From: Patescibacteria group bacterium
GTDB lineage: Bacteria > Patescibacteriota > Patescibacteriia > Magasanikbacterales > JBBTQS01
Assembly (NCBI GenBank): GCA_038065555.1
Contig: JBBTQS010000003.1
Coordinates: 26,266 to 90,265 of the forward strand
Reading direction: 5' to 3'
Length of the DNA stretch: 64,000 bases
The notes under the pieces are model-generated. The model made no database searches, was not told the DNA's origin, and saw nothing but the letters and a program-made list of their open reading frames with translations. Shown piece after piece: positions 3,485-45,077 of the stretch. Numbering within the stretch: the stretch's first letter is position 1; every line of letters begins with the position of its first letter. The translations under genes were made by a program, and so were the position numbers.

Positions 3485-3886
3485 CTACGGTATCTGCACA
3501 ACGAAAACCATTCGATCGACCGCAAACCGCGTCTGGAACAGCGGTCGTTGCGGCAAATCTCCAGGAGCAAAAAGTGCAAACGGGCGCACAACAAGTCCTG
3601 CTGCACAATAGAAGATCCCAACGCCTTGCCACAGACGCGATCCAGCAATAGCAGGTCGTGGGCCAATGCATACCACAGTTCGCCTCGCGCTCGTCCAGGG
3701 CACGAGGCTCGCACTGCGTAGACGCAGAGAGGGATTCTCGACCGCAGCGAATCCCAACTCATCAAAACACGCGAACACCTCATCAACATTGATGAATCGC
3801 AGTCTGTTGCTCTCGTGTTTGTAGTCAACGATCGCAATTTGCTGCTGACCTTTCTCGATCACATGCACATGCGCGCCAGGAACCAT
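3485..3886 (-). CDS. hypothetical protein, possibly degraded
   Basis: The first ~60 codons look protein-like (MVPGAHVHVIEKGQQQIAIVDYKHESNRLRFINVDEVFACFDELGFAAV; possible D-x-K nuclease-like motif). The C-terminal half is Arg/Pro/Gly/Ala-rich like out-of-frame sequence. No clean ORF fills 3416-3928. Confidence 0.2.
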   Translation of the reverse strand: MVPGAHVHVIEKGQQQIAIVDYKHESNRLRFINVDEVFACFDELGFAAVENPSLRLRSASLVPWTSARRTVVCIGPRPAIAGSRLWQGVGIFYCAAGLVVRPFALFAPGDLPQRPLFQTRFAVDRMVFVVQIP

Positions 3887-3928
3887 GGATCACCTCCCTT
3901 GAACATTGACCGCATTGAGCCTAGCAAG

Positions 3929-4532: not shown

Positions 4533-4949
4533 CTATTCCAATACCTTCGTGAGATCTCCGTACACGACCGTTGGGTTCGTAGCGATGATTTCGGTTTTGT
4601 AGTACGGCATCTCTGGAATCTGGTTGAACAAGTAGATCGGTTTGCGCAAAATGTACGCAAACCCCATTTCCAGAAACACATTGCCACCGATGTAGCCAGC
4701 AATGCCGTGCTTCTCATAGTTGAGCACGAGCACACGATCAGACTTTTCGATCACGCTCCAATGCTCACGCATCGCATCATTATTATATTTGTGTTCGAGT
4801 TTGAGTACTTCCTTCTCCTCGTCCGTGAGACCGACGTACTGTGTAGAATACGTAGAAGGAAACGCCTCATGGCCCTGGCTTGCGAACCAATCCGCAACTT
4901 CAAGCGCTTTCTCCGCGTACTGCATGCTATGACAGATGGCTATTTTCAT
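4533..4949 (-). CDS. hypothetical protein (Rossmann-like; possible nucleoside 2-deoxyribosyltransferase-like fold)
   Basis: ATG at 4947-4949 (MKIAICHSMQYAEKALEVADWFASQGHEAF...). Stop abuts the HAD start (4533 vs 4531), so the two are co-transcribed. Function not secure. Confidence 0.5.
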   Translation of the reverse strand: MKIAICHSMQYAEKALEVADWFASQGHEAFPSTYSTQYVGLTDEEKEVLKLEHKYNNDAMREHWSVIEKSDRVLVLNYEKHGIAGYIGGNVFLEMGFAYILRKPIYLFNQIPEMPYYKTEIIATNPTVVYGDLTKVLE

Positions 4950-8426: not shown

Positions 8427-8519
8427 TCGCGACTCGAGACCAAATGCAAACGACCTGCAGTGGATATACCCTGCAGGTCGTATTGTTTGCGACGCGCTTT
8501 CACACGCCCACAGTTGCAA

Positions 8520-8903
8520 CTACTTGCAACTACTACACAACCCAGTGAGAACGAGATTGTGATCATTCACCGTGAACCCTTTCAACTTCGACACAGAGAT
8601 TTTGCATTCTACGCAGCGTGCCTCACGGCAACTGGTGCACACGGCGTGGTGATGGTGATCTTCGTGGCCGTGCAACTCATAATATTGCTCACCTTCGAAC
8701 ACGATGCTCGGGTGAATCATATCCAGCTCCTTGAGCAGTTGGAGTGTGCGATACACGGATACCGTATCAATAGGCTTGAGCGCCTTTGCAATCTGCGCAG
8801 CAGCAAAAATCCCATCGAGATTCTCGATGTACTCAATGATCTCACGACGCGGACCGGTGAGCTTTGCGCCAGACTCTCGAACATGTTCTGCGATAGATGC
8901 CAT
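8520..8903 (-). CDS. Fur-family metalloregulator (Fur/Zur/PerR-like)
   Basis: ATG at 8901-8903. HTH region, then HGHEDHHHHAVCTSC and CxxC...CSSC metal-site motifs typical of Fur proteins. The longer ORF in the track begins with GTG. Confidence 0.8.
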   Translation of the reverse strand: MASIAEHVRESGAKLTGPRREIIEYIENLDGIFAAAQIAKALKPIDTVSVYRTLQLLKELDMIHPSIVFEGEQYYELHGHEDHHHHAVCTSCREARCVECKISVSKLKGFTVNDHNLVLTGLCSSCK

Positions 8904-16583: not shown

Positions 16584-17126
16584 ATGTCGCACATCAACTG
16601 GCCAACACTCTTCGCGCACGATGACGAGACACTGCGCAACGCGATTCTCGCGTCCATGAGCATCGAGGCGACGCGGGAGTGGTTCGCCACACAGTATCCG
16701 CACTTGTTCCTTCCAGATTCGGCGGACCGGGCACCCATACCGCTATCGTACCTGCTGCAACGCTTCGAGGCATATCGCAAGAAGGACGAGACGATGCGGC
16801 GCCGCAATCCCAAGCGTGAGCTCGCGACCGGTCTCGCGTGCGCCTGGGCAGGCTTTCCTGAACTGGAGCCGCCGATCGCATCTAGATACGATGCACAACT
16901 GTCGGCCAGCCACAAGGAGCTGGACAACGCATCGATCAGACTCACGGGTGTGATACACCAATGGCCCATGATCCTCTCAGACAACGGGAAGGAGTACGTG
17001 GTGGTACAACTGGACTTCGTGGGCTACGAACCGAAGCTCGGAACTCGTCTCACAGAGAATCGTCTTCTCGACCATCTCGACTTCCTCGAGCTCGTCGAGA
17101 CCAAGTACATCGACTTCAACTCCTGA
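16584..17126 (+). CDS. hypothetical protein
   Basis: ATG at 16584 preceded by GAGAGAGG (spacer 5 nt). 180 aa with no recognised domain. Followed by a strong terminator. Confidence 0.55.
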   Translation: MSHINWPTLFAHDDETLRNAILASMSIEATREWFATQYPHLFLPDSADRAPIPLSYLLQRFEAYRKKDETMRRRNPKRELATGLACAWAGFPELEPPIASRYDAQLSASHKELDNASIRLTGVIHQWPMILSDNGKEYVVVQLDFVGYEPKLGTRLTENRLLDHLDFLELVETKYIDFNS

Positions 17127-17136
17127 CCAACCTCAA

Positions 17137-17172
17137 CCCCGCGTTCACACGAGCGCGGGGTTGTTGTTTTTT
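17137..17172 (+). terminator. rho-independent terminator
   Basis: CCCCGCG-ttcacacga-CGCGGGG followed by TTGTTGTTTTTT. Confidence 0.7.
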
Positions 17173-17272
17173 ACTGCGACCACATCACTTCTAAAAACCA
17201 AGACCGCGTGCCTATTCCACTCGCCTACTAATTCACAAAGGAGGGTCTTCTCTTTTTGAGTGAGCTCCCGAT

Positions 17273-17587
17273 CTACATGCGCTCCAAGAAATCGTGAAGC
17301 ACTTTTTCCGTTGACTCAACAAGCGCCTTTTTGATCACTTCCGGTGCAATACGATTCTGTAAAAAACCTGAGAGTTCCTCCGGGGTACCCATTTGCGTTT
17401 CCTTCAAAGCAGCTTGGTCCTCTGCACTCAGTTGTGACATCAGGGTAGTCATCATGCGCATTGCAACCGCTGCGTCGATCTTCTGCAGCACAGTTGACTT
17501 CTCCTCTTCCGACAAGCCAGCCATCGTAAAAAGCTCCTGCAATGACTCGACAACTCCGCCACCTTGGTTTGCCAAAGGTTGAGTCAT
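17273..17587 (-). CDS. hypothetical helical protein
   Basis: 104 aa, acidic and helical. Start is 2 nt after the stop of the upstream gene, so translationally coupled. Confidence 0.45.
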   Translation of the reverse strand: MTQPLANQGGGVVESLQELFTMAGLSEEEKSTVLQKIDAAVAMRMMTTLMSQLSAEDQAALKETQMGTPEELSGFLQNRIAPEVIKKALVESTEKVLHDFLERM

Positions 17588-17589
17588 AT

Positions 17590-17988
17590 TTATTCATTTT
17601 CGTTAGAGGTTGGCTTCTTAAGCATGCCAAATTTTTCACGGAAGGATTCAAGTCGCAATCCCATATACCCACTAGCGCCCATTGCAAGTATAGCCGACCC
17701 CCCGATGGCCTTTGTAAACCCGACCGCGCTAGCGGTCATACCTGGATTTACAACGCCAGTTTTTTCGAGAAGAAACAGAGCACTTGTGGTAGCCAAGGCG
17801 CCCAGAACCATCACACCATTTGTTTTCATTACGTTGGTCCACCCCTTCGACCAAGATGCTAACCGTTGTTCTTCTGCCTCATACACACCTTCTGCAGCTT
17901 GCAACACCCGGCTATGAAATTGCTCCCGCGTTTCTTCTGGTGTTTGCACGAGCTCAGGGTTGTTTCCTCGTCGTTCTGGATTGTTCAT
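17590..17988 (-). CDS. hypothetical protein with a central hydrophobic segment
   Basis: Start at ATG 17988 (MNNPERRGNN...). One or two hydrophobic helices. Forms a 2-gene operon with 17273-17587. Confidence 0.45.
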   Translation of the reverse strand: MNNPERRGNNPELVQTPEETREQFHSRVLQAAEGVYEAEEQRLASWSKGWTNVMKTNGVMVLGALATTSALFLLEKTGVVNPGMTASAVGFTKAIGGSAILAMGASGYMGLRLESFREKFGMLKKPTSNENE

Positions 17989-18099
17989 ATGCAAAAAGCA
18001 TACACCACTTCTCACTCTCCCAACAAGAAATGCTTATCCACAAATTCCTTTTTGTTGTTGAAAAAAATGAGCTGCTCTACTGAATTCTACGCTTCGGGT

Positions 18100-18271
18100 G
18101 GAATGTAATTCCTCCGACAGTCAAAAAGAATTCTCCCTCGGAGACTTTCGCAGATCGATCGGCCGGCCGAATCAGCCGATAGGCGTGATGCGTTATCCGA
18201 TCGATCGAGAACGAGACGCGATACCCCGGTGAGGGGGGTCGACGTTGTGCTCCGAGGGAGAATTCTTTTTG
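18100..18271. repeat. nested inverted-repeat element adjacent to tRNA-Gly
   Basis: Perfect 22-bp IR CAAAAAGAATTCTCCCTCGGAG (18122-18143) / its complement (18250-18271) encloses 106 nt. Inside are a further perfect 10-bp IR GATCGATCGG (18153-18162) / CCGATCGATC (18197-18206), a GGCCGGCC core and a small CCCCGG-tga-GGGG hairpin. GGAAT-gta-ATTCC sits at 18100-18112. GAATTC recurs three times. Confidence 0.5.
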
Positions 18272-18275
18272 GCGG

Positions 18276-18347
18276 AGCGGGTAGCGGGAGTCGAACCCGC
18301 TTCATCAGTTTGGAAAACTGAGATAATAACCGTTATACGATACCCGC
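18276..18347 (-). tRNA. tRNA-Gly (anticodon UCC)
   Basis: Minus strand: GCGGGTA acceptor stem / TACCCGC. Anticodon stem TCAGT/ACTGA with loop TTTCCAA, anticodon TCC. T-arm GCGGG-TTCGACT-CCCGC. Discriminator T; CCA not encoded. Confidence 0.85.
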
Positions 18348-18450
18348 AAATGTAGCGTGCACTTTGTGCCGACACTGTACCCAATCTCATCGACTTCCGC
18401 AAGTACCTCTCCCATGCTAGGCTAGATACTCAGCAACTGCCACTGTACCT

Positions 18451-19770
18451 ATGCCCGCACTTGACCTCAACCCACAATTCCAACGTGCGCTCGACCTCAT
18501 GGAGAACACTGACCACCACCTCTTCATCACCGGTCGCGCCGGCACGGGCAAATCCACACTCCTCACCCATTTCCGAGAGCACACGAAGAAAAAAATCGCC
18601 GTACTCGCTCCAACCGGCGTCGCCGCACTCAATGTGCGTGGCCAAACCATCCACTCGTTCTTCCTCATTCCACCACACATCACACCACTCTCAGCAGGCA
18701 AAGAAAAACTTTCGCCCCGACTCAAACCTATTTGCAAAGCGTTAGAAACCATCATCATCGACGAAGTCTCCATGGTCCGCGCAGAGCTCCTCGATTGCAT
18801 CGATGTGCTCCTGCGTCGATACCGTGGATCACAGGAACCATTCGGCGGAGTGCAAATGATTTTCATTGGCGATCTGTACCAACTCCCGCCCGTGGTCTCA
18901 AGTAATGAGGAAGCGCAGTCGTTCACCATGCTCTACCCCAGCCCATTCTTCTTCGACGCGCATGTGCTGGGCCGAACCACATTCGAACTTGTGCAACTCG
19001 AAAAAATCTATCGCCAACGAGACACAACATTCATCGACCTGCTCAATCGTGTACGCACCAACACAACAACTCCTGCGGATCTCGAGGAGCTCAACGCACG
19101 CTGGATCGAGGATCATGGTTCGCTCTCAGAACACGAAACAACCATTGTTCTCACCGCGACCAACGCAGCTGCAGACGCCATCAACACTGCACGTCTTGCC
19201 GAAATCGACGAAGACGAGCACACATTTGGCGCCGTCGTGCAGGGCAATTTCGACCAACGTGTATACCCAACCGCTGAATCACTCACGCTCAAGAAAGGCG
19301 CGCAAGTCATGATGCTCGTCAACGATCCTGCAGGCGGATACGTGAATGGATCACTTGGTATTATCAAGCAAATCGGCCGCGAGGACGAGGATGTACCCAG
19401 CATGATCACTGTCGAACTCACCAACGGCGAAGACGCGACGGTCGCCATGCACAATTGGGAAATTCATCGCTATTCATTCGACGCGAGTATCAGCGCACTC
19501 ACGACAGAACCCGTCGGGTCGTTTCGCCAGTTCCCACTTCGTCTTGCGTGGGCTGTTACTATTCACAAGAGCCAAGGCAAGACATTTGATCGCGTTGTCA
19601 TCGACTTGGGCCGTGGTGCATTTGCACATGGCCAAGTGTATGTTGCACTGTCACGCTGTACGAGTCTCGACGGCATCGCGCTCCTGCGCCCCATCCGCAA
19701 CACTGACATCAAGATGGATGCGCGCGTCCACACATTTTTCGAGCGACTTACTTCGTCGGTTTCTTCTTGA
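18451..19770 (+). CDS. Pif1/RecD-like superfamily 1 DNA helicase
   Basis: Walker A 'GRAGTGKST', 'IIIDEVSMV' (motif II) and the C-terminal 'VYVALSRCTSLDGIALL' signature of Pif1/RecD-family helicases. Confidence 0.8.
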   Translation: MPALDLNPQFQRALDLMENTDHHLFITGRAGTGKSTLLTHFREHTKKKIAVLAPTGVAALNVRGQTIHSFFLIPPHITPLSAGKEKLSPRLKPICKALETIIIDEVSMVRAELLDCIDVLLRRYRGSQEPFGGVQMIFIGDLYQLPPVVSSNEEAQSFTMLYPSPFFFDAHVLGRTTFELVQLEKIYRQRDTTFIDLLNRVRTNTTTPADLEELNARWIEDHGSLSEHETTIVLTATNAAADAINTARLAEIDEDEHTFGAVVQGNFDQRVYPTAESLTLKKGAQVMMLVNDPAGGYVNGSLGIIKQIGREDEDVPSMITVELTNGEDATVAMHNWEIHRYSFDASISALTTEPVGSFRQFPLRLAWAVTIHKSQGKTFDRVVIDLGRGAFAHGQVYVALSRCTSLDGIALLRPIRNTDIKMDARVHTFFERLTSSVSS

Positions 19771-44850: not shown

Positions 44851-44878
44851 TTGACAGCGTATTCCTATGCGCTACACT
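44851..44878 (+). promoter_or_regulatory. sigma70-like promoter P2: TTGACA-16-TACACT
   Basis: -35 at 44851-44856 and -10 at 44873-44878, preceded by a U-rich tract (GGTGTTTTGTTTTC) that could end a P1 transcript. Confidence 0.35.
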
Positions 44879-45077
44879 AGACGTGTGACACTGCTCCTTC
44901 GACATCTTCTTTTTTGGGCTGCGATTCTCTATACACTGCATCACGTAAGAGCAGAAAGTACAACTCTCTCCTCGCCACAGACCCTCACGGGTATGTGGTC
45001 ACTTTCTCCTTTTGTGCGATACAAACTAGTGTGGTAGCGACTCGCAGCCCAAAGAAGGAGATTTTTTTATTGTTTTT

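Follow-up and report, generated by a model that had tools for sequence, protein, structure and literature searches.

The question raised by this locus is what kind of element occupies the DNA directly 3′ of a tRNA-Gly gene in an uncultured groundwater bacterium, where a long perfect inverted repeat encloses a second one and several smaller hairpins. A preliminary description, made from the letters of the DNA alone, left the choice between an unusually elaborate tRNA terminator, a structured small RNA and a MITE. We examined the element in a window of 64 kb, the whole stretch of DNA that was analyzed, which is Patescibacteria DNA on a 359,651-bp contig from Hainich groundwater (ENA ERZ1292633). 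The homologues of the helicase encoded at the locus are found mostly in Candidatus Peregrinibacteria.

Architecture and setting of the element

The gene for a bacterial-type tRNA-Gly(UCC) was located by ARAGORN at positions 18274–18347 on the minus strand and scored 58.9 bits with the Rfam tRNA model. The gene encodes the CCA end only in part, with U-C-C-G after the acceptor stem (3′ end ...ACCCGC-U-CC-G). A putative promoter on the same strand (18374–18402) consists of TTGCGG (18397–18402), a 17-nt spacer and TACAGT (18374–18379), which implies a leader of about 20 nt. Its score in the promoter scan is subthreshold; the sister species (L010), at 75% nucleotide identity, has kept the two hexamers and their 17-nt distance. 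In another lineage (L058 and L059, 45–115) an insertion of about 70 nt lies between this promoter and the tRNA 5′ end and holds the hairpin GGGCCGAGCTCGCTCGGGCC and a repeat of ATACCCGCA. Eight independent Logan contigs (L003–L005, L056–L060) stop within the tRNA gene, at about 18302–18311 of the window and not at the element, which fits the tRNA rather than the element being repeated or shared sequence in those samples.

The element begins 3 nt downstream of the tRNA on the same, minus strand. Its outer inverted repeat (18122–18143 and 18250–18271) has 100% complementary arms of 22 nt, which enclose 106 nt. The number of perfect 22-nt pairs, at most 300 nt apart, that chance would produce in 64 kb is about 1e-6, and the repeat is thus far above chance. 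No further occurrence of an arm was found in the 64-kb window with up to three mismatches, nor in shuffled sequences. The inner features that had been described before were recovered as well: a perfect 10-nt inverted repeat (18153–18162 and 18197–18206), the palindrome GGCCGGCC (18161–18168), which occurs nowhere else in the window, and the small hairpin CCCC-GGTGA-GGGG (18224–18236). Two details had to be corrected. A GGAAT-gta-ATTCC hairpin is indeed present at 18100–18112, but it sits in a 942-bp strain-specific segment (17171–18112) and is not part of the element, because other strains that lack this segment keep the element. The UUUUUG that was taken for a tail following the outer stem is the last 6 nt of the 3′ arm itself and is paired with CAAAAA of the 5′ arm; the sequence that follows the stem on the tRNA strand is ACUGUCGG.

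Folding gave z-scores of −8.2 for the tRNA strand and −6.8 for the other strand, with none of 200 shuffles equally stable, and single-stranded DNA of the element also folds well (z = −7.9). On either strand a Y-shaped three-way junction is predicted, made up of a long closing stem, P1, and two hairpins, the small P2 and the long P3. The 5′ arm of P1 on the minus strand (18250–18271) is CAAAAAGAAUUCUCCCUCGGAG and is invariant in all five sequence variants; as the repeat is perfect, the plus strand at these positions reads as the minus-strand 3′ arm. The latter (18122–18143, minus strand) is CUCCGAGGGAGAAUUCUUUUUG, in which a G+C-rich part is followed by AAUUCUUUUU with a U-run at 18123–18127. 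In three of the related loci (L061–L063) P1 gains 2 bp by taking in 18272–18273 as a result of a T-to-C change at 18121, which makes a 24-nt inverted repeat. In the predicted folds P2 (18216–18245, minus strand) pairs ACG-UCGA-CCCC with GGGG-UCG-CGU around the loop CUCAC. A weak junction helix of 4 bp is predicted between UCGU (18211–18214), within the conserved junction UCUCGUUCUC, and GCGA (18148–18151), within UGCGAAAGU, both on the minus strand; it is the same in five of six sequences and is lost in a partial copy, L072b. P3 (18153–18206, minus strand) has a 10-bp stem whose arms, GAUCGAUCGG and CCGAUCGAUC, are each palindromic, an internal loop AYAA/GSYGG, a distal stem of 7–9 bp with a migrating bulge, and a variable tetraloop at 18178–18181. 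In the predicted primary transcript the cloverleaf and the Y-shaped element fold as two separate domains.

The DNA on the far side of the element varies between strains. The 942-bp segment carries two small minus-strand ORFs of 104 and 132 aa without a Pfam or PHROG family, and it is absent in L055 and L061–L063. We considered it as a mobile two-gene unit and dropped the idea, as it occurs in a single genomic context only. In the same four loci the element lies 8 nt past the T-tract of the ordinary terminator of a convergent gene. This gene, a 180-aa ORFan (16584–17126 on the plus strand of the window; 5001–5540 in L061), is a mosaic: the L061 allele has a protein identity of only 48%, and its last ca. 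50 nt, the terminator, the element and the tRNA are 96–98% identical at the DNA level. Only two protein clusters represent the ORFan among 5.8 billion sequences.

No Rfam family matches the element. At the gathering threshold Rfam 15 found only tRNA in the window, and with E values up to 10 nothing was found over the interior of the element in 17900–18500, nor in positions 4900–5329 of contig L072, which carries the divergent copies described below. Models of 5S rRNA, SRP RNA, 6S RNA and Y-RNA-like RNAs gave no match at E up to 10. We rejected the known ribozymes (hammerhead, twister) and riboswitches (glycine, purine), since they had no Rfam match and their core motifs are absent from the sequence. 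Archaeal readings, namely a split or permuted tRNA, a bulge-helix-bulge stem or 5S rRNA, had been prompted by nearby TrmB genes and a split transketolase; they were dropped because the tRNA is of the bacterial type, the helicase homologues are from Patescibacteria and Peregrinibacteria, and no 5S match was found at E up to 10. A viral, plasmid or phage origin was likewise dropped: three 16–18-mer scans of viral contigs gave chance seeds only, two scans of viral contigs with patterns of the element's family returned nothing real, and blastn against phages and plasmids gave no match. As to coding capacity, a 14-aa ORF on the plus strand loses its ATG in the divergent copy L072a, and the open minus-strand frame has no clear coding signature and no clear third-position excess. 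Restriction-site avoidance, or a GATC cluster acting as an origin signal, was not retained as an explanation either; the excess of GATC is genome-wide, and the GC skew shows no turn at this locus. In the window as a whole, GGCC and CCGG occur 110 and 109 times where 287 are expected, a deficit of about 2.6-fold, and GATC and TCGA are 1.6–1.8-fold over-represented, a tetranucleotide bias that may reflect restriction-modification pressure.

Strain conservation and a small family of related elements

Related loci were collected via the neighboring Pif1-type helicase gene and the 180-aa ORFan gene. In two loci of the same species (L055, L063), about 97% identical to the window, the element is present and almost unchanged. 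In a second lineage (L061, L062), whose flanking genes are 86–88% identical, it is present with four substitutions in its 150 nt. The probability of only four changes in 150 nt is 4e-5 at 12% divergence and 0.018 at 7%. In all strain variants both arms and the 10-bp P3 stem are unchanged, and the substitutions fall in the P3 tetraloop (GAUA, GGUA, GUAA or GUUA on the plus strand) or amount to bulge shifts or wobble pairs. The preliminary description had named a single-copy element without conservation in relatives as the outcome that would speak against it; what we found is a conserved one. Recent recombination may explain part of this high conservation, since the adjacent 180-aa gene in L062 is also less diverged (93% identity) than the background of 88%.

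The element is absent from a sister species (L009, L010; about 75% nucleotide identity, helicase 86% identical at the amino acid level), where some 45 nt separate the tRNA from a conserved small gene downstream. In this species the tRNA-Gly(TCC) gene with about 25 nt of its leader is duplicated (1693–1766 and 3836–3910) around a 2.1-kb insert, which encodes a 487-aa protein without a Pfam family. Because the tRNA is duplicated around an insert, the 3′ flank of tRNA-Gly suggests itself as an insertion hotspot.

More distant homologues proved difficult to find with the nucleotide sequence. A scan of 185,579 species-representative genomes with the arms gave 38 unrelated single chance matches of 17-mers, none in Patescibacteria, and a metagenome scan demanding both arms gave no match. 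With a degenerate P3 pattern, which was too loose, at least 120 chance matches in G+C-rich coding DNA were returned from metagenomes; among the matches listed, none scored above 27 bits with the covariance model R1 introduced below. We also translated the reading frame that runs uninterrupted through the element and compared it with 1.8 billion representative proteins. No homologous protein was found with this translation, though the exhaustive representative search matched a spurious ORF of 55 aa (P0137) and thereby led to contig L072 (Logan ERR3094302).

Contig L072 carries a divergent homologue of the element, L072a, at an unrelated locus: it lies 13 nt after the stop codon of miaA, and the flanking genes differ from those of the window. 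Its interior is about 80% identical to that of the window version over 106 aligned columns without gaps, it adopts the same Y fold (z = −10.8), and it terminates in the T-tract CUCUUUGUUUUUGG. The closing stem is unrelated in sequence and is still 22–29 bp long. Counted from the junction, 13 of 22 positions differ on both sides with pairing kept, and the arms of the window (CAAAAAGAATTCTCCC...) and of L072a (AAAGAGTGTGTAGTGCG...) are identical at only 8–9 of 22 positions. Homology between the family members ends inside P1, of which the inner 5–6 bp are conserved and the outer 16–19 bp are unrelated. A second copy, L072b, lies inverted 140 nt from L072a, a layout expected between convergent genes, and is cut by the contig end. 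Across the copies the loop measures 106–108 nt and the identity is 73–80%.

In the folding and covariation comparison with relatives that had been proposed for this element, the same Y fold recurs, and five inner pairs show double compensatory changes in an alignment of six sequences, which represent three loci from two or three organisms and of which four are near-identical. The five compensated pairs were equaled in none of 500 shuffles, and sliding the partners gave only 0–1. In P2, C-G pairs are replaced by U-A and A-U in L072a, and among the strains one C·A is changed to U-A. In the P3 stem of L072b, A-U is replaced by G-C and U-A by C-G, and in distal P3 of L072a a C-G pair becomes U-A. 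The P3 arms of L072b moreover stay palindromic, with GATCGATC changed to GGTCGACC in both arms. This palindromy is beyond what RNA pairing alone requires, which leaves room for a function at the DNA level.

A covariance model, R1, was built from the six-sequence alignment. With filters off it found no second copy in the 64-kb window, and no further copy beyond those already known in 173 kb of related loci, so that the counts are one copy in the window and two on the 5.3-kb locus L072. An intergenic region of the window upstream of a YecM-like gene (8442–8561, minus strand) can fold into three hairpins (z = −4.5), and its 10-mer TCTCGTTCTC recurs in the junction of the element; it reaches only 16 bits with R1 and is probably unrelated. 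The second long inverted repeat of the window (44904–45062) was also considered as a relative and shows no sequence relation to the element. Its surroundings (44851–45075, plus strand) are part of the 800 nt that separate rpoB from ftsK; here a sigma-70-like promoter TTGACA-17-TACACT (44852–44880) is followed by an imperfect rod-like hairpin (arms 44904–44931 and 45035–45062, 103 nt between them, z = −9.0) and a T-run. By its layout this region is a candidate small RNA of about 180 nt with a 6S-like shape; Rfam gave no match to the hairpin at E up to 5.

The element is a genuine folded structure under selection. Together with its few relatives it forms an unnamed family of Y-shaped elements, located at gene ends of uncultured groundwater bacteria; as judged from the aligned copies, the members lie at the 3′ ends of different genes and enclose a conserved core (inner P1, P2 and P3) in an outer stem that covaries freely.

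Terminator, structured RNA or mobile repeat

The proposal that the element is a terminator fits its position and its stem, but not its loop. It lies at the end of a transcription unit in both settings, 3 nt after tRNA-Gly and 13 nt after the miaA stop codon; two family members immediately follow a gene and share their orientation with respect to it, and two of these loci lie between convergent genes. A G+C-rich stem leads into a U-tract in the window (CUCCCUCGGAG...CUCCGAGGGAG followed by AAUUCUUUUU, on both strands) and in L072a (...GCACUACACAC followed by UCUUUGUUUUUGG). The ordinary terminators of the window are palindromes of A-tract, stem and T-tract with 15–17 bp and loops of 3–6 nt, and the outer stem has the same layout. 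The loop of 106–108 nt with two hairpins is outside the short loop that characterizes intrinsic terminators, and a terminator scan with loops of 3–8 nt misses the outer stem; it lists a hairpin internal to the arm (18144–18132, minus strand) followed by ATTCTTTTTG. The proposal of a structured small RNA is in turn supported by conservation above the local background and by the compensatory changes, while the strand preference differs between the versions. The gene-sense strand of L072a is more stable by 10.7 kcal/mol, and its closing stem contains G·U pairs. In the window version the plus, anti-tRNA strand is the more stable one (−88.3 against −81.3 kcal/mol), with 5 G·U pairs against 1, and the substitutions within the species suit both strands about equally.

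We consider it the best reading, with a probability of roughly 0.45, that the element is a conserved, lineage-restricted structured RNA module held in a bidirectional intrinsic terminator, which would form the 3′ trailer of the tRNA-Gly transcript. The terminator part is suggested by the gene-end position, the G+C-rich stem leading into a U-tract and the upstream A-tract, and the RNA part by the combination of a conserved core with a freely covarying outer stem, which is what structured RNAs show. As the layout of the sequence suggests, transcription would start at the conserved putative promoter about 20 nt upstream of the tRNA, pass through the tRNA and reach the element 3 nt later. The two inner hairpins would fold first and bring the arms together, after which the closing stem of 22–24 bp could zip. 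Its G+C-rich inner half (CUCCCUCGGAG/CUCCGAGGGAG, plus GAAUUC), directly before UUUUU, would then act as an intrinsic terminator, and the transcript presumably ends at the U-run 18123–18127 in the 3′ arm of P1. Because the repeat is perfect and flanked by A5/T5, it would also halt read-through transcription that arrives on the opposite strand from the convergent gene. Maturation of the tRNA 3′ end would free an RNA of about 150 nt with both ends in a long duplex, expected to be stable unless it is cut by a double-strand-specific RNase. Since the interior is conserved far beyond the need of a terminator loop, it probably has a further role, for example as a protein- or RNA-binding site or as a processing signal.

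Several observations sit uneasily with this model. A branched loop of 106 nt is far outside the usual 3–8 nt, the window version favors the anti-tRNA strand by 7 kcal/mol, the palindromy of the P3 arms in L072b is kept without being required by RNA pairing, the family comprises only three loci from two or three organisms, and the sister species does without the element. A more far-reaching version, which we regard as possible but doubtful, is that the family represents an undescribed RNA class of Patescibacteria, with a three-way-junction core of about 118 nt that always lies inside a freely covarying duplex, which doubles as a bidirectional terminator, and is released from the 3′ ends of tRNAs or mRNAs as a stable functional RNA. 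Functions such as protein sequestration, a processing signal or RNA dimerization via the palindromic arms could then be considered, and the core might colonize new terminators.

The MITE reading is not supported by the comparison of family members. With 150 nt, a strong fold (z = −8.2) and no conserved ORF the element has MITE-like traits. The terminal inverted repeats of MITEs are recognition sites of a transposase and are conserved among copies; here the interior is the conserved part and the arms differ between members, with a covarying outer stem, which is the reverse of the pattern in MITEs. Neither a target-site duplication at the flanks (CCGACAGT | element | GCGGAGCG) nor another direct repeat was found in any strain examined, and there is only one copy in 64 kb. 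A related and still rather unlikely possibility is a mobile or proliferating terminator-like repeat (cf. SPRITE, Correia, ERIC), in which the core of about 118 nt would be the repeat, spreading to gene 3′ ends, for example into terminator loops, and the outer stem would be host sequence. In its favor, L072 carries no fewer than two paralogous copies, spaced by 140 nt, the species of the window has a third at an unrelated locus, and homology stops within the closing stem. Compared with the sister species the element lies in inserted DNA beside a tRNA, and tRNA neighborhoods are classic insertion hotspots; furthermore, both Logan contigs with P0137 seem to end inside L072b, as contigs do at repeats. 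Yet the window holds a single copy with filters off and the 173 kb of related loci hold no new one, no target-site duplication is visible, no transposase or related IS occurs in the gene list around the locus, and no empty site was found. Moreover, the copies are diverged (73–80%) rather than near-identical, and with the core removed the outer arms of the window would leave only an A+T-rich 12-bp stem, a poor terminator to serve as target.

The palindromic boxes (GATCGATC twice, GGCCGGCC and the 22-bp arms) could also act at the DNA level, as binding or recombination sites, as the ends of an invertible 106-bp segment or as an attachment site for variable DNA, which we judge improbable. The palindromy that both P3 arms retain when GATCGATC changes to GGTCGACC in L072b points in this direction, as do the stable single-stranded DNA fold, the size and geometry of a 22-bp repeat around 106 bp, which resemble those of known invertible switches, and the two strain-variable segments that the element adjoins, the 942-bp indel and the mosaic 180-aa gene. 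Against inversion, one orientation was seen in six of six assemblies or strains, although consensus assemblies hide minority orientations; no recombinase Pfam family occurs among the 28 genes around the locus (21-kb gene list), and there is no promoter-like site in 18144–18249. The 942-bp cassette was seen in one context only, and the compensatory changes extend to non-palindromic P2, distal P3 and P1, where a double-stranded binding site would have no need of them. Integron attC sites have an imperfect stem with extrahelical bases; their core sites (RYYYAAC/GTTRRRY) were not found in the element, whose perfect stem of 22–24 bp ends in CAAAAAG/CTTTTTG. The strand preference of the window version, with its 5 G·U pairs, would instead suit an independent plus-strand small RNA, antisense to the tRNA trailer, arising by read-through of the upstream 180-aa gene or from a start near it. 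On that strand three variants (GUAA, GCAA, GCAA) have a GNRA sequence as P3 tetraloop, and two changes within the species (18121, 18238) are G·U-compatible only there; two other substitutions are G·U-compatible only on the minus strand, and L072a clearly favors the gene-sense strand. The 8 nt that separate the element from the T-tract of the upstream gene's terminator in L055 and L061–L063 leave no room for a promoter, no promoter-like site was found, and we think this origin quite improbable. Very improbable indeed is an ordinary long terminator hairpin in which the large loop is baggage conserved through recent descent or recombination. The hallmarks of a terminator, the reduced local divergence in L062 and the sister species that lacks the element would agree with it, but an unrelated locus, whose closing stem is different, has kept about 80% of the interior and shows compensatory changes in it, and within the species complex substitutions avoid the helices.

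Relation to known systems and significance

Bidirectional Rho-independent terminators share with the element a G+C-rich stem followed by a U-run, a complementary A-run upstream, and a location where transcription units end and convergent genes meet. They differ in the loop, which is 3–8 nt in such terminators and 106 nt with two conserved hairpins here, and the element further stands apart by its stem of 22–29 bp and by an interior that is conserved between unrelated loci. Terminator-like or palindromic, MITE-like bacterial repeats include SPRITE, Correia, ERIC, REP/BIME and RUP (PMC10969869). The element is like these in its length of some 100–160 bp, its non-coding, intergenic nature, its strong fold, a putative capacity to terminate and the presence of more than one copy on L072. 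The repeat families, in contrast, keep their terminal repeats, reach tens to hundreds of copies and often have target duplications, whereas the arms of the present family differ completely between members, no duplication is seen and the 64-kb window has one copy.

Stable RNAs are also derived from tRNA transcripts, among them the E. coli 3′ETS-leuZ trailer RNA, the rtT RNA of the tyrT operon and the species 1 and 2 RNAs from the tRNA cluster of phage T4. By analogy, the element would be a structured RNA that is co-transcribed directly after a tRNA and freed by 3′ processing. It has no sequence or Rfam relation to those RNAs, and one family member follows miaA, which means that the linkage to a tRNA is not general. 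In rRNA-type processing stems a long duplex of the flanks is cut by RNase III, and a similar arrangement may be seen here in a perfect duplex of at least two helical turns that brackets a conserved RNA and covaries freely. Unlike in rRNA, the duplex encloses only 106 nt of RNA, for which no known stable RNA gave a match. The unnamed family thus joins features of intrinsic terminators and of tRNA-trailer RNAs.

To our knowledge, almost no non-coding RNAs have been characterized in bacteria of the candidate phyla radiation, which have tiny genomes. A conserved, covarying structure of 150 nt that is joined to a tRNA gene and has no Rfam match is a concrete candidate RNA for this group, and the covariance model R1 is ready for use on complete genomes. 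If the family were a proliferating repeat instead, it would be among the few repeat families described in such reduced genomes. If the preferred reading is true, the element is an unusual intrinsic terminator in which a conserved branched module replaces the simple loop, and it bears on the limits of terminator architecture and on how 3′ trailers may become functional RNAs.
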